Part shown: piece by piece, positions 4,993-32,350 of the stretch
How the letters are laid out: each line of letters opens with the position of its first letter
Position numbering within the stretch: the first letter of the stretch is position 1
NCBI GenBank assembly: GCA_000004695.1
Contig: CM000151.3
Coordinates: 6,112,001-6,176,000, forward strand
DNA from: Dictyostelium discoideum
Lineage: Eukaryota
Direction of reading: 5' to 3'
DNA length: 64,000 bases
Notes under the pieces: model-generated
Told to the model about the DNA's origin: nothing
Seen by the model: only the letters and a program-made list of their open reading frames with translations
Databases searched by the model: none
Made by a program: the position numbers and the translations under genes

Positions 4993-5367
4993 ACATAGAA
5001 ATCAATTGATAATTGAATTTTAATTTATATCATCTTTCCGACTTAACTCAAAATTCAATTTTTCTAATTATCTAAATTATTACAATCAACAACCTCCCTT
5101 TTAATTTATTTATTTAATTATTAAACCCATTAACAATAAAATAAGTTTATCATATAATTTAATTTTTTTAATTTATTTTTGTGTGTTTTCCCTAATAATT
5201 TTTTGAATAGTTATCTGATACTTAAATATTTACTATTATTATTATACAAATTAAATTAAGATAAAAAATAAAAAAAATAAAATTGAATGTATATTGCTCT
5301 CCTCCAAACTGATTTAATTACTTGATTTTCTTTTTCCATTATGTAATTAATTTAATTTTTTTAATAA

Positions 5368-5406
<39 letters not shown>

Positions 5407-5643
5407 TTTAATTTGTGTGAAAAAAAAAAAAAAAAAAAAAAACTATTTTCCCAACCTGTTTTGGAAAAAAAAAAAAAAAAAAAAATAAAATAAAATAAAA
5501 TAAAAATGTTTACCCAAGTTCTTTTTTATGAAATGAAACTGGTTTAATCTATAAAAAAAAAAAAATCAAAGATGATCGAAATCTTTTTTTTTTTTTTTTT
5601 AATTAAATCCACATGTGGGAGATAATTTCTGCTCGGTATCAAA

Positions 5644-7769
5644 TAAATAAATTTTTTAACTATAAAATAATTATTTTTTAATTTTAAACATTTTTTTATT
5701 TATTTATTTAAATTTAAGGGAAGAACAATTAATTTTAATTATTGTTCATCAGTAACCCTAATATATTTTGAATAAAAGGAAGTATCTAAAGTATTTATAA
5801 AACTAATATTTTTTGAAGATAAATATATTGTTTTTAATAATGGTAATTGATTTGGTAATTCATAAATATTTTGATTAAAAGTTGGACATTGGAAATAAAT
5901 TATTCTTAAAGTTTTTGGAAGTAGATTAGAATTAATTGGTTTATCAAAAGATTCACCAAAATTAAGTGATTTAAGATTTTTAGGTAAAGAATTCTCTTCA
6001 ATTGGAAAATTGTAATAATATCCTAAATTTAAATTTGTTACTGATGATGGTATTTTTGATAATTGATTCCCTTTATATCCACCCAAATTTAAAGTTGTTA
6101 AAGATAAAGAGTTGGGGAAAATAATTTTTTCTAGATTTGGGTTATCTCTTCTACCTAATTCCAAATTTGTTAAAGAATAACATTCATTTAAATTAGTTAC
6201 ATAAAAAAAGAAATGATATGGATCACCACTAAGAGGGGAACCAAAGTTGTCATTGTAATTAGTTGTAAGTTTAAGTGTTTTTACAGTTGAAGGGATATCG
6301 ATACGAGATTGAAATGATTTACCAAGTTTAATATATTCAATATTTGAAAGTAATATATTACCAACTAATTCTTTATTGAAACTATCACCAAATGAAATTG
6401 ATCTAATTGAGGGCGGAAGTGCAAATTGTTCAATTCTACAAATGAACGAATCACCAAATTTAATATTTGTAACATTATGAGGAATCATACCAACTTTAAT
6501 ATCAACATTGGCTCTTACTTCAAGATTTGTAGTTGAAACAGGAACTTTGGTTTTACTAAATGATTCCACAGTATATCTTAAATTTTGGACTGAATTTGGT
6601 ATTGAGCCATAGATAATGGTACTTTGATAAGTATTATCAAGATATAAAAATATTAATCCTTCTGGAAGTTGATTTGGTAAAATCGGTTGTTGAAAAGATT
6701 CTCCTAATTTTAAAACTTCAAGACTTTTTGGTAACCACCCCCCCCAATGACTGATTAAATATTCCAGTGAATTCAATGCTTTTTATACCATTTTTAATAA
6801 TTTTATTATTTAATTGTTGATTAAATCTCCTATTAAAAATTACACTAATCAACGAATCTGGTAAAGAATTTTCTTGTAAAATTGGATTATAACTACCAAA
6901 AAATTCCAAATATCTTATACTTGAAGGTAAATCACCAGCTTCTAAATGTGAACCACCTCTATTTAATGAAACATCGAATAAATAATTTTTATAAACATAA
7001 TTATTTAATTTTTCAATTGTAAAACTATAATAATTACTATTATTATTATACAAATTAAGATAAAAAAAAATTAAATCTCTTATATATTTATTTCCCCAAA
7101 CTGATCTAATTATTTGATTTTCTTTATCCATTTTTTTTGCTAATTAGTAAAATAATTTAATTATTTTAATAAAAAAAGTTTCAAAAAAAAAAAATAAATA
7201 AAAAAATAAAAAAATTCAATCGAGAGGAATTTTTTTTGTGTGGAAAAAAAAAAAATTAAAAAATGGGGTTGTTAAAAAATTAAATCTTTTTTTTTTCAAA
7301 TTTTTTCATTTTTTATTTTTTTTTAATTTAATTTTTTTTTATTTTTTTTTAACATTTTTACAACACCATGATAATTATCCATGGATAATTACTACCATAC
7401 AAAATATTTTAATTTAATTGGTTACTCGTAATAAAATACAATCGTTGCATTTAAGATCTTTTATTGCATCTTTTGGATTTAGCCACTTCTGCATCATTCC
7501 TCGAAAAGTTCTCTTGGATATCTGTCATATGACTTGTGGGGGTATGTTTGCCAAATATATACCAAATGAAAAAAAAAAAAAAAAAAAAAAAAAAAATAAT
7601 ATTTCCAGATTTTCCTCCTGTTTGGAAAAAAAAAATAAAAAAAAATAAAAAAAAAATAAAATAAATAAATTAAATTTAAAAATATTTTTGTCCCAGGTCT
7701 TTATTTTTGTGAAATGACTGTAATAAATCTGGTTTAGATCTATAAAAAAAAAAATATCCAATATCTTGA

Positions 7770-7801
<32 letters not shown>

Positions 7802-7842
7802 ATTTGAATTCGTGTGGGAGATAATTTCTGCTCGGTATCAAA
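5644..7842. repeat. Tandem segmental duplication copy B (intact), contiguous with the 3' end of the nucleotidase gene
   Basis: See copy A. The junction ggtatcaaa|taaataaattttt at 5643/5644 is the tandem-duplication breakpoint. Confidence 0.65.
5739..7131 (-). CDS. FNIP-repeat-containing protein (Dictyostelium FNIP/LRR-like repeat family). Two ORFs (6718..7131 and 5739..6776) overlap at a C8 homopolymer (6738-6745): a frameshift or sequencing slip
   Basis: Repeated ~22-aa units (LP.SL..L.FG..FN..I....LP.S...L) typical of FNIP repeats. The N-terminus is MDKENQIIRSVWGNKYIRDLIFFYL. Confidence 0.6.
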
Positions 7843-13651: not shown

Positions 13652-14075
13652 ATAAAAACAATTGTTCATAATTTCTTTTCTTTTATTTTATTTTTTATTT
13701 TCTGAAGTTCTAATTATCTTTTATTTATTTAAATTGGTTAAAATATTAAATTCATATTTAAATCTGCTTGTGGAGAATATTAATTATTTAAAATTAAATA
13801 AATGAAAAGAATCTAATTAATTAATTTTAATTTTTAAAAACTTTAAAAAAATTAAATTGTTGAGGCGATTAAATAAACAATGATGTTCGAATTTATTATT
13901 AGCAAAGTGTAAAAAAAAAAAAAAATATTATTATTTTTTTATAAAAGATTATAAAATCATTATCTTGTACTTGTTGATATCATACTCTTTGATCATAAAT
14001 TTATTTTAATATTGTATGTCAACATATTAATTTTACAAATATAATCTCTTGTTCCTAAGAATTAAGTAGTGGGGT

Positions 14076-14155
<80 letters not shown>

Positions 14156-14263
14156 TATAAATAGATTTTTTTTTTTTGTAATTAAATCAATTATAAAATC
14201 AATTATTATTTAAATCTAAAAACAAAGAAAAATAAACTATATATATATATATATATATAAAAA

Positions 14264-14516
14264 TGTTATTCAGTAAGTGTCTAAAAAAAAAAAAAAAAAA
14301 AAAAATATAATAATTATAAAAAACAAAATTCTAATCATTATTTTTTTTTTTTTTATAGAATCAGTTATTTCCTTATCAAATAAATCATTAAATGTCACAT
14401 CTAGATCATTAGTTTCAAATGATTCTAATTTAAATACTTTAAATTTAACTTGTGATTCTGTTTCAAGTGTAACTTCAACAACTTTCTTTACAAGACCAAA
14501 CTTTATAAACTATTAA
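14264..14516 (+). CDS. Candidate micro-gene: 57-aa Ser/Asn/Thr-rich peptide MLFKSVISLSNKSLNVTSRSLVSNDSNLNTLNLTCDSVSSVTSTTFFTRPNFINY. 2 exons: join(14264..14273,14359..14516)
   Basis: TATAAATAGA at 14157, then ATGTTATTCA|GTAAGT, an 85-nt poly-T intron, ATAG acceptor and exon 2. A paralogous exon 2 lies at 50439..50596 on the minus strand. Confidence 0.3.
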
Positions 14517-15228
14517 AAAAAAGTAAAAAAAAAATTATATAATTGAAATAAAAAAAAATATAAAGGGCCGACCAAAAATTAAAAATAAAAAAAAAAATTG
14601 TATTTTATGTAATTTTAATCAGTCAAAGGATTGTTTCACATCTTTAATAGTATTTAATTTTTGAACTTTTCAAAATAATTTTATTTTTAATTTATTATAA
14701 TATGATAAAAGTTATTAAATCTCAGTACTAAACCATGGTAAGATTGAATTGATTTTTATTAATTTCTTTAATTTTTTTGAAAATATTCGTACGAGCTATT
14801 TTTTCAAAAAATGTAAAAATAGCGAACGAATAGCAACATTAATTATAGAATCATTATTATAAGTTTTTGTCCGAAGATCGATTTCCATATACAGTAACAA
14901 TCTATAACCGAAGTCAGTTATTCAGAATAACAAATTACCTTTAAATCCTTCCCAGGTTTCTTAGAATAATAATTCAGTATAAAAAGCCAAAATAAAATAA
15001 ATAAAAATCATTATTGTTTAAATCATAGTTAGTGTAAAGATATAATATTATTTAGTGTTAAAATATAAATATAAATATAAATAAAATTAATAAAGAATTA
15101 ATAATATTATTACTACTCATATTTGTGTGTAATTACAATAGTAATTAAGGGTTCACACATATGTCTTTATTTAGTATTGTTATTTTGGTAAATATAGGCA
15201 ATACAGTTTATTTCAAAAATATCGATTA

Positions 15229-15302
15229 GTTCGGATGGTGTAGTCGGTTATCACGAATCCTTAACACGGATTAGGTCGTGGGTTCGATTCCCGCTCTGAA
15301 TA
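15229..15302 (+). tRNA. tRNA-Val(AAC): tRNA-Val (anticodon AAC)
   Basis: Cloverleaf reads GTTCGGA TG GTGT AGTCGGTTATC ACG AATCC TTAACAC GGATT AGGTC GTGGG TTCGATT CCCGC TCTGAAT A. D-loop and anticodon loop are near-identical to eukaryotic tRNA-Val(AAC). The T-loop B box is GGTTCGATTCC. Confidence 0.9.
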
Positions 15303-15369
15303 CAAACTAATGCTTTTATAAAAAAAAATTCTCAATTTGAGTGTGTTCGAGTAAAAAAGAAAAAATGAA

Positions 15370-15715
15370 TTTTTTCGATAAACTTAAAGGGATGGGATCT
15401 CAATTCACTAGATATTAGCAAAACAAATAAAAAAGAAAGAATCTACCCAAATTTAATCGGCATAATTATACATCAACTATGGAGAATAATTTGTCACAAA
15501 CTATTCAATCAAGACGAATCTAAAACTCCACCCTCATTTGATCCAACATTAATTGAAAAAGAACTAACCAACTTAATTAAAATAGAGAAATTCATTTTAA
15601 TAAAGAAGATTGAAAGGAATGAAACAATATACAAATTAAATAACAGAGACCAATTAATAATCAACTTCAACACATCATGGCATAACCCGAACACTCCAAA
15701 CCCAATTCCACTATA

Positions 15716-15753
<38 letters not shown>
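15370..15753 (+). mobile_element. TRE3-type non-LTR retrotransposon, 5'-truncated 3' fragment (ORF2 C-terminal tail plus a 37-nt poly(A))
   Basis: Translation (...ERIYPNLIGIIIHQLWRIICHKLFNQDESK...NPNTPNPIPL*) is ~60% identical to the C-terminal tails of the elements at 19497-19652 and 20676-20993. It sits directly downstream of tRNA-Val. Confidence 0.6.
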
Positions 15754-15755
<2 letters not shown>

Positions 15756-18700
15756 AAGTAGTAGTAATCATAATATAACCAAAAATATCAACATATAACA
15801 ATATAAAAATTTAAAAATTTAAAAATCTAAAAATTTAAAAATGTAATAAAATATAACAATACACCGCTTTTAGGTAAAAAAAAAAAAAAAATAAACTTAA
15901 AGGTGAACTCAACTTAGGCGAAGAAGAGTTAATAAAAAAACTATTCAAATAAGGTTATTCTACCCACATACCTTGGAATTAAATAGTAATTAAACAAAAT
16001 TAATAGATAATTTCATAGTTAATGGTACTCTTAACATTGTCAGAAGACAAAAGGGTATAACAGTATTCGGTAGAATACTAAAAGAAAAATTCACATTATT
16101 ACACGAGTGTTACAGCACTTTCAAGTATGAAGATTTCCCACTGCAAAAATTCATACTTTACACCCCAGGATATCACTATGTCCACTTTTACACATTTACA
16201 AAAAACATAATAAAAAAAATAAACAATCAAATGGTAAAAGAAAACTGGGGATTGGAGCCATTACTAATAGATGAATGCAACATAGTAATGCTACCAGATG
16301 TGATTAGATATTCATGCATACTATAATTTAATAAAGAAGATGATATCTCAATCATTAAAACAAACATTGATGCTATAAAAGGTAGTAAGCATCCAATAAG
16401 AGCCTTCATCTCTGAATATAACAATAAAGAAATAAGAGATGTTAGAAAAAAAAAAAACACAAGTAATAAAAACCAACAACCAACAACTACAAATACAACT
16501 AAATCAATACCATCAACTCCACCAACAACTAATGCATCAACAACCACACCAATAACAACCACACCAATAACAACCACACAAACAACAACCACACCAACAA
16601 CAACCACACATCAATTACCAACAAGCAATACAACAATCTACAACCTAAACAAAACTACTACTACTACTACTACTACTACAAAACCTATCAATAAAATTAC
16701 TACAAGCAATGGTACCAAGTTTCCAATTGCCAGTAGTATTAGAAAATAATGGAACAATTAAAATTATTACTATGGAACTGCAGAGGTAATCAATCAACCA
16801 ACGCTAAGAATAAAACAGAAGAAACGATAAAAAGAATTGGCACTCAATTAGCACTCCTAACTGAAACTAATTTCAATGGATTCAACCACCACAAAACAAT
16901 GTTCAACTTTGAAAGAATAGATCATGGTTCAGGTAAAGGAACTGGCATAGCAATAGAAAATAGAGATACAAGAAAAGGCCACATATCAATAAACTTCAAA
17001 GACGATGATGGTAGAATACTATCAATTAAATACAATTCCTTTAATTCTATCAACATATTATTGATCTATGCTCCAGCGACTATATCTGAAAGAAACACCT
17101 TCATAATCAACTCAAAATCACTGTTTAAAAAATATAATTCAATCAACCATCAAATAATAGCAGGCGACTTCAATAACAACCACGATTGCAACAGCTTCTT
17201 CGGTACTGAATTACGTAAAATAATAGACCAAGACATGCTACTAGATACTGGTATTGAAGAAAACACTCCAACATTTCCAAGATCAATGAAGAGACTAGAT
17301 AGAATCTACTGTCATCCAACACTACTAAACCAAAATTCAAAACTGGTAGTCCACAACACAGTATTTAACAAATCAGATCACTTTCCCATCACAATCACAA
17401 TACAAACCAACAGAGAAACAGCAACAACAACAACAACCAAACTAGAAAGACTCCCTTGGACATTATGTAAAGAAATTCTCAACAACAAACATATACATGA
17501 TGGGTTATCAGAATTAATCAGTAAGAACAAAGATAAGATCAAATCAGTGGAGGAATGGACGAAATTTAAAAATAATGTCATCAGAGATTATTTAAAAAAA
17601 GAACAAAACAAAATAAAGAAAGAAAAGAACAAAAGAAAATACGTAATCCACAAATTACTTGGAAATAGTGATATCATTCCAAAGATGAGAAAAGAACTCA
17701 ATGAAGAAATAAGTAGAATATTAGAAGAAGAAAGAAAGGTAAAAGCATGGGATATCAAATTAAAACTCCACCTGCATCAAGAAACACCAAGCAAATACCT
17801 CACAAGTATCCTTAAATCCAGAGCCAAAGATAAATCAATATTCCAAATAAAAGATAAAGATAATAAGACCATATCAGATAAAGAGAACATAGCAAAAAGA
17901 TTTGTTGAATTCTATCAAGATCAATATGAAGAGAAAGAAGATAACGAAGAAACCCACAAGAAGTTATTAGAAAAATGGGAAGTAGACGTTGATTTAATCA
18001 AGAAACTCGAGATAGACAGACCGATAAGAATACATGAAGTGACCAAAGCAATCAAAACTTCAAGTATCCACAAATCTCCAGGTTTAGACGGTATCAATGC
18101 ACTATTCTACAAGTACCACATCAACTCAATAGCAAGAATATTGACTATAGCTTTCAACGACCTCCTCACAAATAAGAAAGAAATCCCCACAAAATTCAAA
18201 GAAGGAGTAATAACAACAATATTCAAAAAAGGAGATGAACTAAACATTTCAAATAGAAGACCAATCACCCTTCTCAATACAGATTACAAAATTTTAAGCA
18301 AAATTCTCAACAGTAGATTATTAGATATCACCAGTAAAATTATCAACAAATTTCAAAACGGCTTTGTTCCAAACAGGTTCATCCAAGACAATATTCAGAT
18401 CATGAAGGAAGTAATAGAAATAAGTAACAAAAGAAAGAACAATACACTCATTACCTTTTACGATTTTAACAAAGCATTCGATTCAATCAGCCACAAGAGT
18501 ATCACAAGAACATTAGAGCATATTGGTATCCCCCCAAAATTCACAGCGATCCTACTAAACCTACTCAAAGATACTAAAAACAAAATAAAGATCAACGAAT
18601 TTTTAGTCAATGGAATAACAATCAGAAGAGGAACAAAACAAGGAGACCCAATATCACCAACAATCTTTGCTCTAGTTTTAGAACCACTTCTAATATATAT

Positions 18701-19658
18701 CATCAATGATAATACAATCAAAGGCTTCACTTTACCAAATTCCAAATCATTAAAACTCACTGCATTTGCTGACGACATAGCAACATTTACAAACTCCACT
18801 GAAGAACTAATGAAAATTAATACTAAAATCCAAAAGTACTGCTCAGCAACATCATCATCGTTAAACAAAGAGAAAACAGTAATGATAGCAATAGGAGATA
18901 AACCACACGATCTACCATTCCAAGAGAGTACAGTCCCAGAAAGATATCTTGGCCTCAATTTCACCAAAACAGGTTTAAATTCAAAATACAACACTTTAAT
19001 CCAAGAAATGAAAAACAATCTAATCAAATGGAAATCACAAGCAATAACGATGAAGGCAAAGATGACAATTCTCAAAACATACGTTCTATCCAAATTAACA
19101 TACCATCAATACATGGATAATCTAAATGAAGAACAAATTGAGGAAATCAATAACATGACCAGATGGTTCTTATTCTCCTCAGTTAAGAATACATATACAG
19201 AAGAGAGAAAATACAAAACTATGATGAAAATAGACAGAGCATATGCAGATTGGAAAGAAGGAGGCATAAAATTATGGGATATAGAACTAAGACATATAGC
19301 ATTCAAAATCTGGTACATGAACAGGCTACTCCATAACAACTACAACAACAACAACAATACCTTACAAGAATGGTACATGGAGCAATTAAGTAGAAAAAAA
19401 GCCCCCACTTCAACCCTCAACGATATGTACAGACACTGGGGTGTATTCAGAGTCAAATTTTACCAAAACCATCCAAAGATAAATGAACATAGAAACAGAA
19501 TTACTAAATCTCATCGAAACTGAAAAATTCATCACACTAAAGAAAATCAAACACGACGAAGCAATACTAAAAAACACCAATCAAGATCTTCACAAATACA
19601 AATTCAACAAAGCCTGGCAAACCCCAGCAGCTCCGAACCCTCTTCCAATTTAAGTAGT

Positions 19659-19709
<51 letters not shown>

Positions 19710-19825
19710 GTTTAAAAAATTTAATACAATTGAATAATAAAAATAAAACCGTTTAACAAACACCGCCGAAAAGACACAAGGACATTCCTTGAAGGTCTGA
19801 TCACAGGTAAAAAAAAAAAAAAAAA
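15754..19825 (+). mobile_element. TRE3-type (tRNA-gene-targeted, downstream-inserting) non-LTR retrotransposon. ORF1 is degenerate; ORF2 (APE endonuclease plus reverse transcriptase) is intact but the zinc-finger region is internally deleted. Ends in a 3' tail and oligo(A)
   Basis: ORF2 is 16749..19523 (924 aa): N-terminal APE-like LLLWNCRGN...SDHFPI, RT motifs FVPNRFIQDNI, ITFYDFNKAFDSI, KQGDPISPTIFALVLEPL, FADDIATF. There is an internal poly(A) at 19664-19700 followed by a conserved 110-nt tail (tataatatagtttaaaaaatttaatac...ggtctgatcacagg) and A17. Confidence 0.75.
16749..19523 (+). CDS. Retrotransposon ORF2 polyprotein (APE endonuclease plus reverse transcriptase)
   Basis: See the mobile-element entry. 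Its ATG overlaps the ORF1 stop (TAATGG). Confidence 0.8.
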   Translation: MEQLKLLLWNCRGNQSTNAKNKTEETIKRIGTQLALLTETNFNGFNHHKTMFNFERIDHGSGKGTGIAIENRDTRKGHISINFKDDDGRILSIKYNSFNSINILLIYAPATISERNTFIINSKSLFKKYNSINHQIIAGDFNNNHDCNSFFGTELRKIIDQDMLLDTGIEENTPTFPRSMKRLDRIYCHPTLLNQNSKLVVHNTVFNKSDHFPITITIQTNRETATTTTTKLERLPWTLCKEILNNKHIHDGLSELISKNKDKIKSVEEWTKFKNNVIRDYLKKEQNKIKKEKNKRKYVIHKLLGNSDIIPKMRKELNEEISRILEEERKVKAWDIKLKLHLHQETPSKYLTSILKSRAKDKSIFQIKDKDNKTISDKENIAKRFVEFYQDQYEEKEDNEETHKKLLEKWEVDVDLIKKLEIDRPIRIHEVTKAIKTSSIHKSPGLDGINALFYKYHINSIARILTIAFNDLLTNKKEIPTKFKEGVITTIFKKGDELNISNRRPITLLNTDYKILSKILNSRLLDITSKIINKFQNGFVPNRFIQDNIQIMKEVIEISNKRKNNTLITFYDFNKAFDSISHKSITRTLEHIGIPPKFTAILLNLLKDTKNKIKINEFLVNGITIRRGTKQGDPISPTIFALVLEPLLIYIINDNTIKGFTLPNSKSLKLTAFADDIATFTNSTEELMKINTKIQKYCSATSSSLNKEKTVMIAIGDKPHDLPFQESTVPERYLGLNFTKTGLNSKYNTLIQEMKNNLIKWKSQAITMKAKMTILKTYVLSKLTYHQYMDNLNEEQIEEINNMTRWFLFSSVKNTYTEERKYKTMMKIDRAYADWKEGGIKLWDIELRHIAFKIWYMNRLLHNNYNNNNNTLQEWYMEQLSRKKAPTSTLNDMYRHWGVFRVKFYQNHPKINEHRNRITKSHRN

Positions 19826-19847
19826 GAGTGTGTTCGAGTTTATTTGT

Positions 19848-19886
<39 letters not shown>

Positions 19887-20327
19887 AGTAGTTGGTGTAA
19901 AAAGCCTTAAATAAGGCTAAAAATTTTAGAATTGTAATGATTCACCATATTAAAACTAATATGGATTTATGTATTGACATAATTAATATGGAAATCATAA
20001 GAACCATAATATAATTCAGTTACTAGTCATAACCAACTTAAAAGGTTTGCCGTTAACAATAAATAATATTAAATAATAACTGACTTTAGAAGGCTAATCC
20101 TGTTACTCAAAATATTAATATAAATACTCTAAAAATATTAAATAAAAATCATTGTCTTTTCTTTACTATCTTAAATATACAAATAAACTATTAATCTCTT
20201 ATTTGTTTATCTTATCATTGTAATTATATATTAATTTTAATAAACCATTTTTTTTTTTTTTTTTTTTTTTTGAATTGGATTTTAATAAACCACTTCAGCT
20301 GATTTAAATTAGTATCCATAGAAATCG

Positions 20328-20399
20328 TCCTTGTTGGTCTAGTGGTGAGGATTTTCGCCTGTCACGCGAAAGGCCCGGGTTCAATTCCCGGACAGGGAG
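20328..20399 (+). tRNA. tRNA-Asp(GTC): tRNA-Asp (anticodon GTC)
   Basis: TCCTTGTTGGTCTAGTGGTGAGGATTTTCGCCTGTCACGCGAAAGGCCCGGGTTCAATTCCCGGACAGGGAG. Near-identical to the canonical eukaryotic tRNA-Asp(GUC). Followed by a C and a T6 Pol III terminator. Confidence 0.9.
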
Positions 20400-20452
20400 C
20401 TTTTTTGGAAGATTTCAAAATTCCTTGTTAAATTTTATATTAACCAATTCCG

Positions 20453-20998
20453 CAGCATTTCTCACCAAAAAGGTAGAAACACCCTCTTCAGATTCTTCTC
20501 AAGATCACTTCCAGGTATCAACCACGAAAGAGACACCAGATGCAAGATCTGTGGCCACCTATTCAGAGACCCTTATTCTCACCTCTTCACTCTATGCCAA
20601 GATATCCTAGATATTGAAAAAACCATCATATCAACAGTTAACAAATTATCATTCATCAAAATCCACAGATGGTCAATGGATACCTTAGACATATCAAAAT
20701 ACAACAGAACTGAGAGAATCTTCCCCAATCTCATAGGAATAATAGCACACCAATTATGGAAGATAATCTGTCACAAATTGTTCAACACTGATGAAAGCAA
20801 ACCAGAGCCAAAATTCGAACAAAAGGTCATAGAAACAGAATTACTAAATCTCATCGAAACTGAAAAATTCATCACACTAAAGAAAATCAAACACGACGAA
20901 GCAATACTAAAAAATACAAATCAAGATCTTCACAAATACAAATTCAACAAAGCCTGGCAAACCCCAGCAGCTCCGAACCCTCTTCCAATTTAAGTAGT

Positions 20999-21047
<49 letters not shown>

Positions 21048-21160
21048 GTTTAAAAAATTTAATACAATTGAATAATAAAAATAAAACCGTTTAACAAACA
21101 CCGCCGAAAAGACACAAGGACATTCCTTGAAGGTCTGATCACAGGTAAAAAAAAAAAAAA
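20453..21160 (+). mobile_element. TRE3-type 5'-truncated copy (same family as 15754..19825): zinc-finger/C-terminal part of ORF2, internal poly(A), 3' tail, oligo(A). Flanked by a 14-bp TSD
   Basis: CKICGHLFRDPYSHLFTLC zinc knuckle, then the ...NKAWQTPAAPNPLPI* tail. The 3' tail is identical to 19700-19808. The direct repeat attaaccaattccg occurs at 20439-20452 and 21161-21174. Confidence 0.7.
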
Positions 21161-21171
21161 ATTAACCAATT

Positions 21172-21964
21172 CCGATTAATCATCTACACAACAAAGTTTG
21201 CCCCATTTGCAACAATGAAATGAATAATGATCCCTACGGTCATTTGTTTTTCAATTGTCAGCACACAATCAACTTCATTAACCACGACAAATTAAAATAT
21301 TTTATATATAAAAATTGCAATGGAAACAAAAACTGGTCACTAACAAAAAACCAAACAACAAAATTATACACACTCATCTATAAACCACAAACAAACAACA
21401 AAGCATTTAAACCAGATCCAACTATCAATATTAATTTTCATTTTGCAGAAAACGCACAATATAAAAAATACAGGTTCAACTGGAATTATATAAACACAAA
21501 TCTTGATCTAGTCAGAACACATGCATATTGGAACATAATCTCATTAGTTATTCACCAAATATGGATATGGTTATGCAAATCATTATTTGACATCAATATA
21601 ACTCAATCAATTGTTAATTGGAACAACCAAATTAACAACACAACACTAGATTATGATATATTAAAATCAAAATGGCACAAGCTAATAAGATTGGAATATT
21701 CAAGAACTTTATCAAACTTTAACCAATACTCAATTAAAAACAACCTCACAAAAACTCAAAAAGAAACCCAATGGTCCGAAACCATCAAAAAATTTAAAAA
21801 AGAATGGAGCATAAACACTAATGAACCAATTCCAACAATTACACCACCAATTAATTATTAATTACCTAATCTAAAATAACATACCATTTTAAATTCACAA
21901 AAACTAAAAAACCTAAAATAAATAAATAAAAATAACATACTAATTGTATACTACAATAGTTTAT

Positions 21965-21996
<32 letters not shown>
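21172..21996 (+). mobile_element. Second-family TRE-type non-LTR element, 5'-truncated 3' fragment with an intact C-terminal ORF segment (21220..21861) and a 28-nt poly(A)
   Basis: ~97% identical to 25780-26580 of the longer copy, where the corresponding frame carries a TAG at 25852. Confidence 0.65.
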
Positions 21997-24900
21997 GAAA
22001 TAAACGAGAATTTATACATATAAAAAATAAATCACTGTTATATCTTCAGTATGTTGCGTTTAAAAGTTACATTATAACATATCATCTAATTGATCACACA
22101 CACAACATTGTTGATCAAAAGATCGAACAACCATCTGGTATCACAAGATATATCAAAGCTGCAACACGTAGTGTCACTAAACACAAAATTCAACATGCAA
22201 AAAATGCAGATATGGCAACAACTATAAAAAATGCTATCACAAACCCAAACATGAACAAAAACAATCAACCACCAAAAAACAACATTAACACCCCACCAAT
22301 CAACGAAATTGCAAATTCCAATCGCAATAATAACCCACTTCAAAATAGTGGTTCAAAAGCTACACTAAATGAATCACTTGATATTACCAATCAATCCCAA
22401 AACAATAATGAAATATCACACAAAAGTTATTCTCCAAATAATAATAACGGGAAAAACTCATTATCAATGAGCAATCCAACCGATCCAACAATTGTACCAC
22501 AAAAACCTCTACAATCTCAACCAAACAAACCAAGTGCATCAACCCCAAATACAATAAATACAAGAAGAAGCAGCAATGCCCTGACTACACAACCAGTCAA
22601 TACTGGTGCTACCAAACCTAGTAAGGTATGAGCTCAAAAATCAACTTTATAACATGGAATTGTAAAGGATTCACTGAAAACCCAAACAATCAACACAATT
22701 CCTACCAAAAAGCTGTTGACACACTACAACTACTTATATCAAAACTTCCACCTCGTCCAACAATCTCAATACTCACTGAACTCAATTCATCACCATTACA
22801 ACTTAAACATGATTTTCCCGATCACATCATCTCTGTCACCAAACGAGGAAATGGTGTAATCATCATTAACCATAACCCAAACTCACTCAAACTCAAACAC
22901 ATATCAACAATTGATGGTAGAGCTATTTTAGCAGACGTTATATTTCCAAATCAATTACCAATTGGTATTCTTGGAATTTACGCACCAGTATCAAATAATA
23001 CCATCAAAAAGAATTCATATGCAACTTCACTACAAACACTTCTCCACAACCACTCAACAAACCCAATACCAAACCAATCCCAACATGTATCTATTATCTC
23101 AGGAGATTTCAACTGTATCCACAACGACAATTCACTATTAGATGATATTATCCAATCCTACACATACCAACACCATCTAATTGATCAAGGTGAATTTAAA
23201 AACACTCCAACTCATACACATGGTAACAGATTAGATAGAATATATACTCAATACAATAGAATAGACCCTGAAAATATATATACTCAAGTCCACCAAATTC
23301 CATCTTCATTATCAGATCATAATCCAATATCAACAACAATTTCTTCACCTTTTCAAATAAATAAACATAAGAAAAGATGGATATTATCACCTGGTACTAT
23401 AAATGACCATGAAGCAATCAATATTATCAATCATTTAATAACTAATCACAATAACACATCAATCAATCAATTTACAAACTGGTCAAAAGTAAAATCAAAA
23501 ATTATTAAAACTCTAAAAAACTATCAATATAACAAAGACAAACAAACCCAACGTGCAAAACAAATACTATTAGAAAAAGCAGCAAAATTCAAACATCTTG
23601 AAGAACAATGCATCGCCGAATACAATATTATATGTAACAAAAACAAATTACATCAAAACCACACAAACATATTAAAAAAACATATAAATGGAGAAATACC
23701 TAGCAAGTATCTATCAGCAATACTAAACAAAAGATCAAAAGATGCAAAAATTGAATCAATCCAATATGGTAACATCATTACATCCGACCCCGACCAAATT
23801 GAAAATGCATTTGTTGAATTCTACACAAATCTATATAGCTTACAAATATGTTGTCCAATTACTCACCAGCTCATGCTAAACACATGGTCCATCATAAAAA
23901 ATGAATATTGGAATGGTTTAGACTCACCATTTATACAAGATGAAGTTGAAGCTGCAATTAAAACCTGTTACCCCAACAAATCACCCGGTCCAGATGGCGT
24001 TACAAATGCATTCTACATTAATCATTTAAACCAAGTTAAACCAATTCTCACTGCATTATTCAACGATATACTAGAAAATCCTCACCACATCACAACAGAA
24101 TTCACCGAAGGTCTTATACACACAATATACAAGAAAGGCAACCCCTTACTCATATCAAATCGTCGTCCCATTACACTTCTAAACACTGATTACAAGATCC
24201 TCTCAAAAGTAATCAATGCACGTCTTCTGAGAATACTTCCTTTCATCATCAATAACAACCAAACTGGTTTCGTACCCCACAGATTCATCATAGACAACAT
24301 CATCAACATCAATGAATTAATCAACTACCTCAAATCTAAAAACCTCCCTGGTATCATCACACTATTTGACTTCTTTAAAGCATTTGATTCTATCTCTCAC
24401 GATAGTATTAAAAGAACATTAATTCATATGGTATACCAATAAAATTAATAAATTTAATCCACAAGCTATTATCTGACTTACAAGCAAAAATTTCAATTAA
24501 TGGTAAAACAACCAGAAAATTCGATATTAAAATAGGTGTAAAACAAGGTGACCCAATCTCAGCCACTTTATTTGTAATTGTAATTGAAATATTAGCAAGA
24601 ACAATAAATGCAGACAATTCAATAATTGGTTTACCAATTTCACCCAATCCACAAATTAAAATCAAATTTACCCAATTTGCAGACGACTCTACAACATACA
24701 ACATCAACTACGAACAACAACAACAATCAATCAAACATTTCGATAATTTCTGCGCTTCAACATCATCATCATTAAATTTTGACAAAAGTGCAATAATAGA
24801 AATCAACCCCCACAAAATCACTGATAAACACATAATAAACAATATTCCACAATCAAAAAGAATACCAATAACCAAAAAAGATCAATCAGAAAGAGTCCTT

Positions 24901-26579
24901 GGCTATTTCTTTAATCATAATGGTTTACATAGGAAATTACCAGAAACAATGAAAACATTGAATAAATCATTAGTACTATGGAAAACTAGTGGCACAACAT
25001 TAAAAACAAAAACAACCATCATAAACACCTACTCACTATCACCAATAACATATTTATCATACCTTGAAGAATTTACAAAAGATGAAGAAATTCAAATTAA
25101 TAAATTAATCTCATGGTTTATGAATTCTCCCGCAAATTCTGAATCACCAACTCTCAATACCAATTCCATTGAAAATAACACATCAACCATCCATTCACGT
25201 GCAAAAATACCTTTGATGTGTTATGATAGATCATTAAAACCATTAAAAGAAGGTGGTTGGGGTATGTGGAATATACAATTACGACAAGTTGCTCAAAAGA
25301 TTTGGATATACAACAGATTTTTACAAATGCATAAATCTGCAAATAATTCAATATACATGATAAGTTGGATGGATCAAATCATCAACAAATCAATCTCTTC
25401 TCCATACCTTATAAAAATCAAAAAAGAATGGGAAAACTATGCAACTCAAATTGGACATCTAAAAGATAAAGTTCAAATCCTACAACCAATATTAATAAAA
25501 AATCAAACCTCTCAAACATTAAACACAAATAATATTCCACTACCACCAACACTCAAAGAAATCTACTCGACAATACTCAACAATCACCAATGTAAATCAA
25601 AAGACTATATTGGCAAGAAATATTCAGATCTACTTCTTACTTCGCACCAACCATCAATACAACTATTATGGAAATACACATACGACCAACTATTTGTCAA
25701 AATTCAAAAATTAAAAGATCCAAAAGGCCGTGATACAATGCAAAGATTCCATGCTAGATGTCTTCCGATTAATCATCTACACAACAAAGTTTGCCCCATT
25801 TGCAACAATGAAATGAATAATGATCCCTATGGTCATTTGTTTTTCAATTGTTAGCACACAATCAACTTCATAAACCACGACAAATTAAAATATTTTATAT
25901 ATAAAAATTGCAATGGAAACAAAAACTGGTCACTAACAAAAAACCAAACAACAAAATTATACACACTCATTTATAAACCACAAACAAACAACAAAGCATT
26001 TAAACCAGATCCAACTATCAATATTAATTTTCATTTTGCAGAAAACGCACAATATAAAAAATACAGGTTCAACTGGAATTATATAAACACAAATCTTGAT
26101 CTAGTCAGAACACATGCATATTGGAACATAATCTCATTAGTTATTCACCAAATATGGATATGGTTATGCAAATCATTATTTGACATCAATATAACTCAAT
26201 CAATTGACAATTGGAACAACCAAATAAACAACACAACACTAGATTATGATATATTAAAATCAAAATGGCACAAGCTAATAAGATTGGAATATTCAAGAAC
26301 ATTATCAAACTTTAACCAATACTCAATTAAAAACAACCTCACAAAAACTCAAAAAGAAACCCAATGGTCCGAAACCATCAAAAAATTTAAAAAAGAATGG
26401 AGCATAAACACAAATGAACCAATTCCAACAATTACACCACCAATTAATTATTAATTACCTAATCTAAAATAACATACCATTTTAAATTCACAAAAACTAA
26501 AAAACCTAAAATAAATAAATAAAAATAACATACTAATTGTATACTACAATAGTTTATTTATATCAAAAAAAAAAAAAAA
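21997..26579 (+). mobile_element. Second-family TRE-type non-LTR retrotransposon, near full length. ORF1 is 22212..22631; ORF2 is 22628..26453 (APE, RT, CCHC-like zinc finger) but carries one frameshift (~24430) and one nonsense codon (25852)
   Basis: ORF1 stop and ORF2 start overlap (ATGA). APE: ITWNCKGF...SDHNPI. RT: FVPHRFIIDNI, TLFDFFKAFDSISHDSI, KQGDPISATLFVIVIEIL, FADDSTTY. Zinc finger: CPICNNEMNNDPYGHLFFNC. Terminal A14. Confidence 0.75.
22628..26453 (+). pseudogene. Retrotransposon ORF2 (APE plus RT plus zinc finger) disrupted by a +1 frameshift and a TAG
   Basis: The six-frame ORFs 22628..24442 and 24949..25854 and the downstream reading to 26453 are pieces of one polyprotein. The truncated sister copy reads CAG where this copy has TAG. 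Confidence 0.7.
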
Positions 26580-27717
26580 GGGATCATTTGTAAAAAATTT
26601 GTTAAATTACAAATAAGAATAATTGGAATAATTAAAAAAAAAAAAAAAAAAAAAAAAAAGGGATTTGATTTAATATTCTTAAAAAAGAAAAAAAAAAAGT
26701 ATAAATTAAAATTTATTTTTAATTTTTTTTTTTTTCATTACACCATTAAATCTTGTTTATTTGTGAATATAAAAAATTATTTTAATTAATCCTTTCACCA
26801 GTAGTACTCTTATTTTTATTTATTTATTATTTTTATTATTATTTCTCAATCAAATAATTTATAAAAAAAAAAAAAAAAAACCTAAATATTTAATTAAGAA
26901 TTCTTTTTATTTATTATTTTTATTATTATTTCTCTATCAAATAATTTTAAAAAAAATACTCTTTAAATTAATAATTATGATTAAAAAAAGAATTTTTTTT
27001 CCCGCACCCCTTTACCATTTTCTTATTTTAGATATTTCCAGATTTGGAAATTTTCTTTTTGGTTATTGGATTTTACTTAAAATAGAAAATTATTTTTTTT
27101 ATTTCCAAATAATTCAAAAAAATTGAAAAATGATCGAGTATAAATAAGAGTTTTTTGAAAAAAAAAAAAAAATAATCATTTATACAAATGTAAAAAAAAA
27201 ATAATAAAGAGAATAAAAATCTAACTCTAACAATTTAAAAGGTTTAGATAATAGTTGATTGACAGTTAAAAATATAAAAAAAGGTAAAGCCATAAAAAAT
27301 GAAAAATAAATAAATAACAATTTAAATCTAACTTTTATATTATATTTTATAGTAATTTTAGACAATAAAAATGGTTAAAATTCAATTATAATCTAGATAA
27401 TATAATATATGAATCACTACCAATCGAATGATAGAGAAAGGAAAGATTTATCTATGCACTATATCATAAAGAAAGGTTGATCATCATCTAAAAATTATTT
27501 CTAAACAAATAAAATGAATCAATTCAAATCAAATGTCAGAGAAAGGAAAGATTTATCTATGCACTAAGGCATTTTGAAAAGAAGATGATATAAATAAAAA
27601 ATTAGAAATCAAAAAAAACTAAAAATAAATTAAAACCAATAATAAAATTAAAAAGGTTTAATATATTTTAAAATTAAATTTTTTTTAATAATTTAAATTA
27701 TAAGATAAGCTACTTTT

Positions 27718-28764
27718 TTATTTAATTTTTCCAAATGTTTTAATTAACAAATCATTAGACTTTAAAAAATTAGTTTTAAAATCTTGAGAAATTGCAGTGA
27801 AAAATTGATGATTACAATTGTCATTATTTTCTTTTGAAAGTTTTTTAATATCTTTTTCAACTGGTATTAATGAAAAAATAAAAGGTGATATTTCAACCAA
27901 AACAATTGGTCTATTTACATTTAAACAACTATTAGTTTCATAGATTTGATTTGTTACTTTACCTAGATTAACTGGAGAACGAGCAATATGAAAAAGAAAT
28001 TCTGCATTAAAATCTTGAGTTTTCTTATTATATAATTTTGCAGTTGAACATGATATATTTGGAATTTCAGGTTCAAATGATTGAAATGATAATTGTTTAA
28101 AATCATTTTCAACTGGATCGATATCTGATGTATGAAAATTAATTAAACCTTCAATACAATGAAATCGGATTTCATTTTTAGATAAATAACAAATTAATTG
28201 ATCGATTTCATTTTGATCACCAGCCACCAATATTAAATCATAGCATAAACAACCACAAATTTGAATTGATGGATAATTTGGTTTAATAAAATCCCAATAA
28301 TAATCTTCAGGTTTTTTAATGGATATTATTTTCTTTATTGTTTTATTTTCAAGTTTTGTCATTAAACATGCTCTTTTATGGGAAATGAAACAAGCGGTTT
28401 CCAAATCGATTAAACCTGAACAATAAGCTGAAGCAATCTCTCCTAAACTCATACCAACTATTTGATCTGGTTTTACACCATAATGTTTATAAAGTTTAAA
28501 AATTGAAACTTGAAACATAAATGATATACAATGAATAAAATGTTGTTCTAGAAATGAATCACTATCATTCTCTTTAAGATTTTTATATTTATCAAACATT
28601 GAATATCCATAATATTTTTCATTAAAAATATTATCAATTTCCATTATCGTTGATTTAAAATTATTTCCATTTTCAAATAATTCTAATGGTATTTTATTTT
28701 TAAATGAACCTTGACCAGAAAATATAAATACTAAATATGGTTTTGTTATTTTATTTTCTTCCAT
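27718..28764 (-). CDS. Stand-alone acyltransferase (malonyl-CoA:ACP transacylase / PKS AT-domain-like) protein A, 348 aa
   Basis: FIFSGQGS (GQG oxyanion motif), GMSLGE (GxSxG nucleophile elbow), ...FHTSDID (AFHS-type His motif). Paralogous to the B and C genes in this window. Confidence 0.75.
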   Translation of the reverse strand: MEENKITKPYLVFIFSGQGSFKNKIPLELFENGNNFKSTIMEIDNIFNEKYYGYSMFDKYKNLKENDSDSFLEQHFIHCISFMFQVSIFKLYKHYGVKPDQIVGMSLGEIASAYCSGLIDLETACFISHKRACLMTKLENKTIKKIISIKKPEDYYWDFIKPNYPSIQICGCLCYDLILVAGDQNEIDQLICYLSKNEIRFHCIEGLINFHTSDIDPVENDFKQLSFQSFEPEIPNISCSTAKLYNKKTQDFNAEFLFHIARSPVNLGKVTNQIYETNSCLNVNRPIVLVEISPFIFSLIPVEKDIKKLSKENNDNCNHQFFTAISQDFKTNFLKSNDLLIKTFGKIK

Positions 28765-29359
28765 TTAAAATTTTAATTATTATTATATTTATATTAAGTA
28801 TGTCTGTGTGTTTATGTAAGTGAAAAAAAATAAAAAAAAAATAAAAAAAAATAAAAATAAAAATAAAAATAAAAATAAAAATAAAAAATAAAAATAATAA
28901 AAAATAAAAATAAACACAACGTAATGTAATAAAAAAAAAAAAAAATTACAAGTCAAAAGTAATAATTAAAATTAATAAAATTTAATTCATTATTTTAAAA
29001 ATAAAATAATTATAAAAATTAATGAATCTGTTTTAAAAAATATCTAGATATCTTATTATTATTTACTTATTATTGTTTTTCCCAATGGGAATTTCTTTAG
29101 GTTAATAGAAGAAATTCTATTTAAATATAATAAAAATAGAACAAAACTGTTTTTTAAAAAAAAAAAAAAAAAAGAGATGATTTTCTAAAGATTTTTTTAT
29201 TTTCTTTTTGCTTCATAAAAAAAACAAAAAAATTCTTTTTAAGATATTTTTCTCATTTTCTTTTTTTATTTTTATTTTTTTTTTTTACTTTTTGATTAAT
29301 TTTTTTTTTTTTTTCCTAAACCGTAATTTTATTTGAAAGTGAAAAAAAAAAAAAAAAAA

Positions 29360-30516
29360 ATGATTTCAGGTATTGAAGAAGATATAAAAGAAAAACCATT
29401 TGTTGTGTTTTTTTTTTCAGGTCAAGGTGGAATTCATAATAAATTAGCAGTCGAATTATATGAAAAAGAACCAGTTTTTAAGAAATGGACTGATGATATT
29501 GATAATATTTTAAAAGAGAAATATTATGGATATTCGATGATTGAAAAATTAAAATCAATAAACGATGATGATAGAGAAGCATTATATGATCAACATCTTG
29601 CTCATTCAATTTTATTTATATTACAAATTTCATTATTTAAATTATATAAACATTATGATGTAACTCCTGATATAATTTATGGTTTAAGGTATTATTTAAT
29701 TTGAAAAAATATAATAAAAATAATAATACTTTTTTTTTTATTTTAAATTTTATATTAATTAATATAATATTTAATAATTATTATTTTAGTTTAGGTGAGA
29801 TTGCATCATCATATTGTTCTGGAATGATTGATTTAGAAACAGCATGTTTTGTTTTATATTCAAGAGCAGTATCAATTAATAAAACATTTAAAGAATATGA
29901 TAGAACATTGGTATCAGTTGATATTTCAGAAGAAAATTTCAATTCAAAATATAGTTTAAAATTCCCATCAATTGAAATTGCTTGTAAAATTCATGCTCAT
30001 ACCATTACATTGGGTGGGAAAATTACAGATATTAATCAACTATTTGAATTGTTTGATATTGATAATGTCAGTTATAAAAGATTACCAATTGCATCAAGTT
30101 TTCACACTTCTTCTATGGAATCTATTAGGGAAGAAATTCTTAATTTATCATTCGATTATTCTCAACCTACTATTACTCATTTTTCAACAGTAACTTGTAA
30201 ACCATTTGATATCAAAACCCAACCATTTAATTCATTTTATCTTTATAATAATATTCGTGAGCCATGTCTATTGGAAGAATCAACAAAAAATATTTATTTA
30301 TTTCATTTAAATAATAATAATTTAAATTATGATAATAATAACAATAATTATAAAAATAATGAATATAATTATGACAATATTGATAAATTAACAAATCAAA
30401 AAAAATATAACCAATCAAAAAAACCAATATTTATAATAGAAATATCTGCGCAATACTCTTTAATTTATTTTATTGAGAAAACAATATATGAATTATCAAT
30501 CAAATATAATGATAAA

Positions 30517-30559
<43 letters not shown>

Positions 30560-30663
30560 TTAATAATAATAAATTTTTATCTACCTTGTATAGAGACAAA
30601 AATGGAGATTTAAATACATTTAAAAATGTAATATCAAATATTAAAGAGGTTTACAAAAACTAA
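29360..30663 (+). CDS. Stand-alone AT-domain protein B. 2 exons: join(29360..29688,29790..30663), 400 aa, with an N/Y-rich low-complexity C-terminal insert
   Basis: FFFSGQGG. The GTATTA donor at 29689 and TTTTAG acceptor at 29789 restore G-LSLGE-IASSYCSGMIDLETACF across the intron. SSFHTSSMESI. Confidence 0.75.
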
Positions 30664-31297
30664 TAATTATATTAAGTTTTGACAACAGCCACACAGAAGG
30701 AGAGATAGGCAGATACAGAAGCAGAGAGAGAGAAGATTATGGGTTATTTTGGGTAGAAGGGATAGAGGGGGTAGAAATTTTAATATTACTGGGCTATTCA
30801 TTAATAAAAAAAAAAAAATAAAAAATTTGTTATGTTTTAAAAATTATTTTTAATTTGTCAGTGTTTTTAAACAGATTTTTTAAAAAATAAAAACAATATC
30901 ACTGATATCAGTGGTTCATTAAAAAAAAAAAAAAAATTTTTTTTTTTTTTTAATTTTTAATCTAAAAAGATTAAATAGTGGGAATTTATTGTATTTTTTG
31001 ATTTTTTTATTTAAATTTATTATTTTAAAAATATATTTAATAAATCTTTTTTTTAAAATTTTAAATTATCATTTTTTATTTTTATTTTTTTTTTTTTTTT
31101 TTTAATTTTTATACTTGCACATAAAAAAAACAAAATAAAATAAAATTAAATTTAATCTTCATTAATTAATTTATTTAATTAACAAGTAAAGAAATAAAAA
31201 AAATAACAAGTAAGAAAAAAAAAAAAATTCAATCATCATATAAAAAAAAAAAAATTCTAACATATCAAAAATAATTATAATAAATTTTAAAAAAATT

Positions 31298-32350
31298 ATG
31301 GAAGAAATTTTATTTCCAACCAAATCACCACATATTACATTTATGTTTACTGGTCAAGGATGTTGTTTTCCAAAAATGGGTCTTGGTTTATATAATAGTG
31401 AACCAATATTTAAAGAATGGATTGATAGAATTGATGAAATTTTAAAATCAAAATATTATGGTTATTCAATGTTTGAAAAAATTAATTCAATTGATGAAAA
31501 AGATCAAGATGGATTAAACAATCAACATTTATCACATTCTGCTTTATTCATGTTTGAAGTTTCTCTATGTAAATTATTAAATTATTATGGTTTACATCCA
31601 AATTTAATAATTGGTATAAGTTTGGGTGAAATCGCATCAGCATTTTGTTCTGGTATGATTGATTTAGAGACATCATGTTTTTTAACCTATAAAAGGGCAT
31701 TCTCAATTGAAAAAACCATTAATGGTGATAGTACATTAATTATAGTTGCAATTTCTGAAAATGAATTTTTAAATAATTATTCATTGAAATATACAAATAT
31801 TGAAATTGCAAGTAACCTTACATCATCATCATTATTAGTGGGTGGTAAAAAAAATGATTTACTTTCATTTTGTCAAGAATTAAAAGAAAAGAAAATATTT
31901 TTCGCTCAAACCTCATTACCAACTTCATTTCATACATCAAGTATGGAACCAATTAAAAATGATATAATTCAATTAACAATTAATAATCAGTCACCTAAAA
32001 TCACTCATTTATCAAGTGTGAATTGTAAATTCTTTAATGGATATGATAACCAATTCAATTCAACTTATCTTTATTATAATATTCGTAATCAAGTTTCATT
32101 AGCTCCAACTGTAAAAGTAATGTGTAATTATTTCGATCAAATGAATTCATTTGATTTTTATCATCATAAAAATATAGTGATTGAAATTTCACCCCATAAT
32201 GCATTATTTCAACATGTTCAAAGAACAATTGATACAATTCAAAATTTTCAAAGTAAAAAAAATACTTTTTTCTTTGCTCCATTATCTAAAGGTAAAAATG
32301 AAGTTATAAATTTAAAAAAAATGATTTTAAAAATTAATAGTTTAAATTAA
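31298..32350 (+). CDS. Stand-alone AT-domain protein C, 350 aa, single exon
   Basis: FMFTGQGCCFPKMG, GISLGEIASAFCSGMIDLETSCF, PTSFHTSSMEPI. About 45-55% identical to A and B. Confidence 0.75.
   Translation: MEEILFPTKSPHITFMFTGQGCCFPKMGLGLYNSEPIFKEWIDRIDEILKSKYYGYSMFEKINSIDEKDQDGLNNQHLSHSALFMFEVSLCKLLNYYGLHPNLIIGISLGEIASAFCSGMIDLETSCFLTYKRAFSIEKTINGDSTLIIVAISENEFLNNYSLKYTNIEIASNLTSSSLLVGGKKNDLLSFCQELKEKKIFFAQTSLPTSFHTSSMEPIKNDIIQLTINNQSPKITHLSSVNCKFFNGYDNQFNSTYLYYNIRNQVSLAPTVKVMCNYFDQMNSFDFYHHKNIVIEISPHNALFQHVQRTIDTIQNFQSKKNTFFFAPLSKGKNEVINLKKMILKINSLN

Follow-up and report, generated by a model that had tools for sequence, protein, structure and literature searches.

TRE3-A, TRE3-B and TRE3-C are non-long terminal repeat (non-LTR) retrotransposons of Dictyostelium discoideum that are targeted to tRNA genes (Szafranski 1999; Glockner 2001; both cited in PMC5006619 and PMC5911963). 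Their insertions lie about 40–150 bp downstream of the gene, or 14–305 bp in the census (PMC5911963, PMC5006619), and either the internal or an external B box is used (PMC5911963). A TRE is borne by 61% of the tRNA genes of this species, 13% bearing both TRE5 and TRE3 (PMC5006619). Sequential targeting of one gene gives TRE-TRE tandems (PMC5006619, Table S2; PMC5391098), and, by a published rule, one TRE is not inserted into another. Here we describe a cluster of five dead copies of TRE3-type non-LTR elements, c1 to c5, located downstream of a tRNA-Val and a tRNA-Asp gene in a 64,000-nucleotide stretch of chromosome 2 (CM000151.3, positions 6,112,001–6,176,000; hereafter, the window). With a probability of roughly 0.9, we read the cluster as the outcome of target-primed reverse transcription events that took place repeatedly and independently in the short zone behind these two adjacent tRNA genes, which are transcribed by RNA polymerase III (Pol III). 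TRE3 elements, their placement behind tRNA genes and the way in which a single tRNA gene is targeted serially have all been published before, and the locus is in that sense a textbook case, in which the only slightly unusual point is the integration of c1 into c2.

The tRNA-Val(AAC) gene (15229–15303) and the tRNA-Asp(GTC) gene (20328–20400) were located by ARAGORN, and their internal B boxes are GGTTCGATTCC (15281–15291, from a B-box scan) and GGTTCAATTCC (20378–20388), respectively. A protein search with the second open reading frame (ORF2) of c2 returned Dictyostelium reverse transcriptases, which were then mapped onto the window. By tblastn with full-length ORF2 relatives, all five copies are on the + strand, as are both tRNA genes; the co-orientation proposed in an initial annotation of this DNA was thus borne out. 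Like the described TRE3 elements, they end in oligo(A), A-runs closing the 3' end of every copy, and have two ORFs, the second with apurinic/apyrimidinic endonuclease (APE) and reverse transcriptase (RT) domains and, at its C-terminus, a Cys/His motif. Long ORFs with APE and RT domains span 16749–19523 (c2) and 22628–24442 (c5). The Pfam models Exo_endo_phos and RVT_1 were found in the ORF2 of both, and also in three Dictyostelium proteins used for comparison, P0001 (1147 aa), P0005 (DDB_G0269266) and P0007 (DDB_G0291958, 1275 aa). A CX2C...HX4C motif could be read directly in c3 and c4, despite which Pfam returned no zinc-finger model. The LTR retrotransposon Skipper-2 (DGLT-P), which occupies the same niche behind Dictyostelium tRNA genes (PMC5006619), carries LTRs together with an integrase and a chromodomain, all of which are absent from the window copies.

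Comparison of the ORF2 products separated the copies into three families, so that the initial estimate of at least two was right in proposing more than one but fell short of the actual number. The closest protein to c2 and c3 is P0001 (97–100% aa identity), to c1 the last ~107 aa of P0005 (96%), and to c4 and c5 P0007 (98–99%). P0001 and P0005 are 59% identical, and P0007 is 33% identical to either. Within the window, self-BLAST matched 19488–19823 to 20828–21161 (98.8%) and 21170–21986 to 25763–26579 (98.65%). These families are probably TRE3-A (c2 and c3), TRE3-B (c1) and TRE3-C (c4 and c5), since two close families and a distant one that leans to TRE5 in RT-only comparisons is also the pattern of the published elements. 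A literature search by DDB gene identifiers and GenBank accessions returned no paper naming these families, although a 1999 GenBank 'pol' entry (AAD43057.1) shares a 90% cluster with P0007. The 90% clusters of the c2, c1 and c4/c5 families hold 55, 14 and 13 sequences; cluster size is not copy count, and the figures only hint at an agreement with the published copy numbers (67 for TRE3-A, the commonest, 43 for TRE3-B and 29 for TRE3-C; PMC5006619), leaving TRE3-B and TRE3-C unseparated.

All three families were also found behind tRNA genes, in the same orientation, at independent loci. Copies of the c2 family are 89 nt behind a tRNA-Phe gene (locus L001) and 83 nt behind a tRNA-Leu(UAA) gene (L009), the c4/c5 family is 61 nt behind a tRNA-Asn gene (L008), and the c1 family is 70 nt behind an intron-containing tRNA gene recognized by Rfam (L010). 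Their target-site duplications (TSDs) are atttcacccacagttaaa, caatctaaaca, ctctcaaatatc and taatcaaaaaatag, respectively. The TRE3-type downstream targeting claimed in the initial annotation is therefore a property of the families and not of this locus alone. TSDs at these other loci measure 11–18 nt, and those in the window 13–14 nt (13 bp for c1, 14 bp for c2 and c3).

Behind tRNA-Val, the sequence reads as one nearly full-length element interrupted by another: c2 is made up of 15353–15390 and 15904–19825 and bounded by the exact 14-bp TSD GAGTGTGTTCGAGT (15339–15352 and 19826–19839), and c1 is a later insertion, 38 nt inside it. The first segment of c2 holds 12 nt of 5' untranslated region (UTR) and ORF1 codons 1–9 (ATG at 15365). 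The second holds the frameshifted remainder of ORF1, the ORF2 at 16749–19523 and a 3' UTR that contains an A-run and ends in oligo(A). Between them, c1 (15391–15890, 500 bp) is 5'-truncated and retains the C-terminal part of ORF2, with an internal A-run, some 125 nt of tail module and an oligo(A) end; it is 97% identical in nucleotides to positions 7108–7595 of L010. Its own TSD, ATAAACTTAAAGG, is exact at 15378–15390, the last 13 nt of the first c2 segment, and at 15891–15903, and is nowhere else in the window, 0.02 occurrences being expected by shuffling. The homology of c1 to its family begins at 15393, two bases past this repeat. The 13 bp are c2 ORF1 sequence (codons 5–9). The window frame reads MNFFDKLKG, then c1, then ATAAACTTAAAGG again and then ELNLGEEEL, while the copies in L001 and L009 read ATGAATTTTTTCGATAAACTTAAAGGTGAACTC unbroken across the insertion point. 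Likewise, P0006, a fused gene model from the c2 family, has the start MNFFDKLKGELN (in longer form, MNFFDKLKGELNFGEEEL), and in P0006, L001 and L009 MNFFDKLKG runs directly into ELN.

Outside the interruption, c2 is 99% identical to P0001, of which aa 914–1093 are absent, and 99.4% identical to the L009 copy, which keeps 540 bp that are missing from c2 at 19487/19488. Because its ORF1 is split and frameshifted and its ORF2 lacks these 540 bp, c2 is inactive. The 5' ends of c2 and c1 are 49 and 87 nt past tRNA-Val.

Behind tRNA-Asp, the TSD ATTAACCAATTCCG (20439–20452, 39–52 nt past the gene, and 21161–21174) flanks c3 (20453–21160), a 5'-truncated copy of the c2 family with an ORF2 C-terminus, the CX2C...HX4C motif and a complete 3' UTR. 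Its 708 bp begin at exactly 20453, where homology to the full copy in L009 starts; it is 97% identical in aa to residues 962–1147 of P0001 and 96–98% identical in nucleotides to the L009 and L001 copies. The next copy, c4 (21170–21996, ~0.83 kb), is also 5'-truncated, is 99% identical to residues 1046–1275 of P0007 and ends in A28. It is followed by an orphan segment of 55 nt (21997–22051) and by c5 (22052–26579, 4528 bp, ending in A15), which is 98.4% identical in nucleotides to L008 3561–8079 and 5'-truncated by ~474 bp relative to the L008 copy. In the alignment to the full L008 copy, the TRE3-C homology of c5 begins at 22052 and not at about 21998. Two lesions interrupt the c5 ORF2 (22628–26451), a frameshift near 24430 and a stop codon at 25852–25854.

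The last 5 nt of the right c3 TSD, TTCCG (21170–21174), are also the first bases of c4 and match c5 at 25763–25767. They cannot be assigned to the c3 TSD or to c4, because the 5' junction of c4 sits in an 8-nt microhomology with the host, TTCCGATT; the host sequence cttccgatt is found 27–35 nt past tRNA-Asp in two other strains (L005 and L007, described below). The 5' end of c3 is 52 nt past tRNA-Asp, and that of c4 about 47–52 nt once c3 is removed. That the 708-bp copy arrived after the elements 3' of it, as first proposed, is the most parsimonious order, because the reverse order would put the c4 insertion ~0.76 kb from the gene. We infer from position only that c5 came before c4. The c3/c4/c5 array resembles the published TRE-TRE tandems, in which TREs are added serially at one tRNA gene, the newest being nearest; the array behind tRNA-Val differs from them in that c1 lies within c2. 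As for distance, c2, c1 and c3 (49, 87 and 52 nt) fall in the published TRE3 range, as does c4 with c3 removed.

Three other explanations bear on these assignments. In a genome with 22% G+C, short A/T-rich repeats are common, and the direct repeats might be chance matches or, alternatively, internal element sequence. However, each is unique to its two junctions. In the window, GAGTGTGTTCGAGT is found only at 15339 and 19826 and ATTAACCAATTCCG only at 20439 and 21161, neither can be extended by one base, and matches to them occurred in 0 of 100 dinucleotide shuffles, so that with the 13-mer 0–0.02 are expected. The two 14-bp repeats had been placed correctly in the initial annotation, as had their nature as TSDs: the flanking repeats differ from copy to copy within each family, other copies bearing unrelated repeats of 11–18 nt, and they are therefore host sequence. 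Chance or internal origin thus has a practically negligible probability. Nor do the elements appear to be TRE5 or members of a family indifferent to tRNA genes and near them by coincidence. When only the RT domain is compared, the c4/c5 family is about equally close to TRE5-like proteins and to the c1 and c2 families, an ambiguity reported for TRE3-C by Spaller et al. (PMC5006619). Over the whole ORF2, however, P0007 scores 450–455 bits against P0001 and P0005 and 305–330 bits against TRE5-like proteins. A TRE5 reference copy (L011) lies ~50 bp upstream of a tRNA-Asp gene and in opposite orientation, whereas the three families are downstream and co-oriented at the independent loci. Contradicted by position and orientation at five loci, this explanation is extremely improbable.

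The third concerns the tRNA-Val flank, where 15353–19825 had been described as a single composite insertion. A template-switch chimera of two TRE3 RNAs would account for the single 14-bp TSD that encloses both c1 and c2, and for the 5' position of c1, as expected of a late switch during reverse transcription. It would not explain why 38 nt of c2 precede c1, nor why c1 has an exact 13-bp TSD of its own and is bordered on both sides by a continuous c2 ORF1 that is unbroken in P0006, L001 and L009. The flanking 14-bp repeat therefore stands, but the insertion it encloses is nested and not composite, because c1 has its own TSD inside the continuous ORF1, and we consider a chimera very improbable.

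Under repeated insertion, the history is most probably as follows. A nearly full-length TRE3-A-like element, c2, arrived first at tRNA-Val, duplicating 14 bp that include an external B box-like (exB-like) GTTCGAG. A 5'-truncated TRE3-B-like element, c1, then entered 87 nt behind the same gene, and, since the target zone lay inside c2 ORF1 by then, duplicated 13 bp of c2. On the tRNA-Asp flank, TRE3-C-like elements, c5 and then c4, would have been first. The 5'-truncated TRE3-A-like c3 was the latest arrival; it entered 52 nt from the gene, and its 14-bp TSD abuts or overlaps the 5' junction of c4. The serial re-targeting of tRNA 3' flanks announced in the initial annotation holds, in that the same flanks were entered repeatedly. 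The claim that the history is recoverable from the TSDs holds for c1, c2 and c3; overall, the history is only partly recoverable, because c4 and c5 are without a TSD and have the 55-nt orphan between them.

Signs of target-primed reverse transcription are the downstream poly(A), the TSDs and the 5' truncation of c1, c3, c4 and c5, to which the two extra bases at the 5' junction of c1 and the microhomology at that of c4 may be added. The hallmarks of mammalian L1 are 5' truncation, TSDs of variable length, extra nucleotides or microhomology at the 5' junction and occasional target deletions. The window copies share with L1 the 5' truncation, the TSDs (those of c1, c2 and c3; 11–18 nt, the other loci included) and the extra nucleotides or microhomology at the 5' junction, but L1 does not target Pol III genes, while the TRE3 site is set relative to the tRNA gene.

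Counted from where the internal B box ends, the insertions start at ~62 nt (c2), ~65 nt (c3) and ~100 nt (c1). The degenerate GTTCGAG (15345–15351) is inside the left TSD of c2, itself 36–49 nt past tRNA-Val. The stretch reads GTGTTCGAGT, and its exB-like box, tGTTCGAGTtt, agrees with the exB consensus GGTTCGANNCC, a B-box sequence some tens of nt past the tRNA coding region, at 7 of the 11 positions, the terminal CC being missing. At the same distance (~38 nt downstream), a paralogous tRNA-Val gene in the window has a perfect exB, GGTTCGAATCC, and no TRE3, and the orthologous tRNA-Val gene of D. cf. discoideum (L006) has a canonical exB, GGTTCGATTC. GGTTCGA(A/T)TC is common to both. The overlap of the left repeat with GTTCGAG, recorded in the initial annotation, is thus real, and its reading as a degenerate exB is plausible. 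Because the left TSD copy stays beside the gene, this box was still present when c1 arrived. c1 starts 38 nt past its end and the L001 copy 41 nt past a good exB, distances that fit the use by TRE3 of an internal or external B box (PMC5911963). The site would be chosen by distance from B-box-bound TFIIIC/TFIIIB and not by target sequence, a tethering model published for TRE5-A that we have carried over to TRE3; the TRE literature drawn on here cites no experimental TRE3 retrotransposition assay.

The nesting of c1 in c2 is accounted for by the position of c2, which landed unusually close to the gene (49 nt), on the exB-like box, and left the preferred zone inside itself. On this basis we venture, tentatively and with some doubt, that a TRE3 takes its site by B-box distance alone, whatever DNA is there, that the nesting is an exception to the rule against TRE-in-TRE integration, and, in view also of the absence of all five copies from two other D. 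discoideum isolates, that the NC4/AX4 lineage had three active TRE3 families once it had split from those isolates.

The locus can be assigned from its sequence to chromosome 2 of the AX4/NC4 lineage. A gene adjoining the cluster (27718–28764, − strand) encodes a protein identical to DDB_G0275991 of AX4, and positions 17694–38814 match assembly GCA_054883475.1 at 99.6% identity, with 1 mismatch and 15 gap openings. Syntenic loci in other strains were located via orthologues of the acyltransferase gene downstream of the cluster; an exon of the upstream peptidase-M50 gene, used as an anchor in the homologue search, gave only its self-match. In strain ACTFIR (L005, GCA_054859385.1), tRNA-Val and tRNA-Asp are 1076 bp apart, and in strain ACTFIW (L007) only 80 bp lie between them and 265 bp separate them from the acyltransferase gene, with the same gene order and without TRE3 in both; in D. 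cf. discoideum (L006), tRNA-Val is present and tRNA-Asp absent. Because all five copies are absent from the ACTFIR and ACTFIW loci, the cluster is specific to the AX4 lineage.

Removal of the TRE3 copies leaves a spacer of 537 bp between the tRNA genes of the window, which had been described as an ancestral spacer of ~0.5 kb. It is mostly unique to the AX4 lineage, shares almost nothing with the spacers of ACTFIR and ACTFIW and contains TRE5 scraps (see below). The ancestral description is therefore not upheld, and the spacer represents the pre-TRE3 state of the AX4 lineage only. Assemblies under the name D. discoideum diverge strongly at this locus: the flanking protein is only 95% identical between AX4 and ACTFIR, and most of the intergenic DNA does not align. 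The ACTFIR spacer also contains a foldback of ~745 bp (L005 12521–13264) with arms of ~210 nt that are 95–98% complementary. Neither the window nor L007 contains this foldback, which is possibly a non-autonomous DNA element.

Several points weigh against the history proposed above. The letters A, B and C are provisional, and the full copies in L009 (4563 bp) and L008 (4995 bp) are off the published consensus lengths (5229, 5279 and 4734 bp; PMC5006619), a difference in length and not in kind. The exB-like box is only a putative TFIIIC-binding site. In the comparison with other isolates suggested in the initial annotation, both tRNA genes were seen without TRE3 in ACTFIR and ACTFIW, but the flanks of these TRE3-free strains are too diverged for exact empty sites to be visible, the alignment being limited to the tRNAs and ~20 nt. 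Lastly, a search for TSDs of c4 and c5 found none, and the orphan 55 nt (21997–22051) have no match in the window, in L008 or in any fetched locus, so this part of the cluster could reflect a deletion at the target or subsequent rearrangement.

The c4/orphan/c5 block might then be one insertion that was rearranged afterwards, through an unequal recombination or a partial duplication between copies of TRE3-C, or an insertion with a large target deletion. Besides the missing TSDs and the orphan, this would accommodate the ~370 nt of host DNA behind tRNA-Asp in L005 that have no counterpart in the window, and the segment after c5 (26580–26732) that has none in L005. Host DNA was, we infer, lost at the c4/c5 insertion. 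On the other hand, c4 and c5 show differences at 11 of their 817 shared positions, and their poly(A) tracts are of unequal length (A28 and A15), as is to be expected of independent copies, and the 8-nt microhomology at the 5' junction of c4 is typical of 5'-truncated integration. We hold such a rearrangement or large deletion to be unlikely, albeit a serious alternative to separate insertions of c5 and c4. The 10-mer TTGTTAAATT, the longest word common to the c4 and c5 flanks, was considered as a TSD and rejected, as it is 18–19 nt off both junctions and chance suffices to explain it. The 153 nt after c5 (26580–26732) contain a second A-run (A26) followed by GGGAT, which also follows the tail of c5, and had no match in the other strains or other elements compared.

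The cluster has little importance beyond annotation, but it makes a tidy illustration, with three steps that can be dated and one TRE nested in another, a rare arrangement. Being lineage-specific, it could serve as a set of natural presence/absence markers or as an indirect sign of past TRE3 activity.

None of c1 to c5 has the position and orientation of a TRE5 (~50 bp upstream of a tRNA gene and opposed to it), which fit only two scraps on the − strand of the Val–Asp spacer. The first, at 19850–19898, is T34 followed by ATGAGTAGTTGGTGT; on the opposite strand, it reads as the final 15 nt of a TRE5 ORF2 and its A-run. The 15-mer is identical to L011 8180–8194, where it is likewise joined to poly(A) and the TRE5 ORF2 ends …YNTNYS*. 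No TSD was found for this scrap, and across the Val–Asp spacer there is no coding TRE5 remnant: there was no ORF and no similarity past the 15 nt and A-run. The second, 31 bp of T24 plus GAATTGG (20248–20278), is flanked by the exact 14-nt repeat ATTTTAATAAACCA, which has two copies in the window (0.04 expected); the repeats included, it spans 20234–20292, and it is 35–49 nt upstream of tRNA-Asp. In L011, the TRE5 3' module terminates in CCAATTC, and both L005 and L007 again have T(n)GAATTGG upstream of tRNA-Val. The segment resembles a TRE5 insertion with extreme 5' truncation, of which 7 nt and the poly(A) are present. With these upstream scraps, tRNA-Asp resembles the 13% of tRNA genes targeted by both kinds of element. 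About 330 bp of the spacer lie outside these scraps.

A third tRNA gene of the window, the paralogous tRNA-Val (50013–50087, − strand; ARAGORN), is 98% identical to the first, short flanks included, in inverted orientation, and the two are preceded by ~0.75 kb of 73%-similar DNA (13849–14599 and 50346–51086). It is 265 bp from a gene for a MutS homologue (46412–49748). We considered whether it heads another TRE3 array and rejected this, as the downstream ORFs are those of the MutS homologue. Gene families near the cluster (3109–7842, 28353–32086 and 39678–46477) comprise FNIP-repeat genes and three tandem acyltransferase paralogues (Acyl_transf_1), and the window as a whole has 21.9% G+C.

Finally, a tandem unit of ~200 bp with GAAAATTTTGC(G/T)A(A/C)GCAAAATTTTC was seen in L001 (5400–5800), L007 (11600–11900) and L011 (2190–2560). 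Found where TRE5 copies have their 5' end, immediately upstream of tRNA genes, it is presumably the A-module of TRE5-A.

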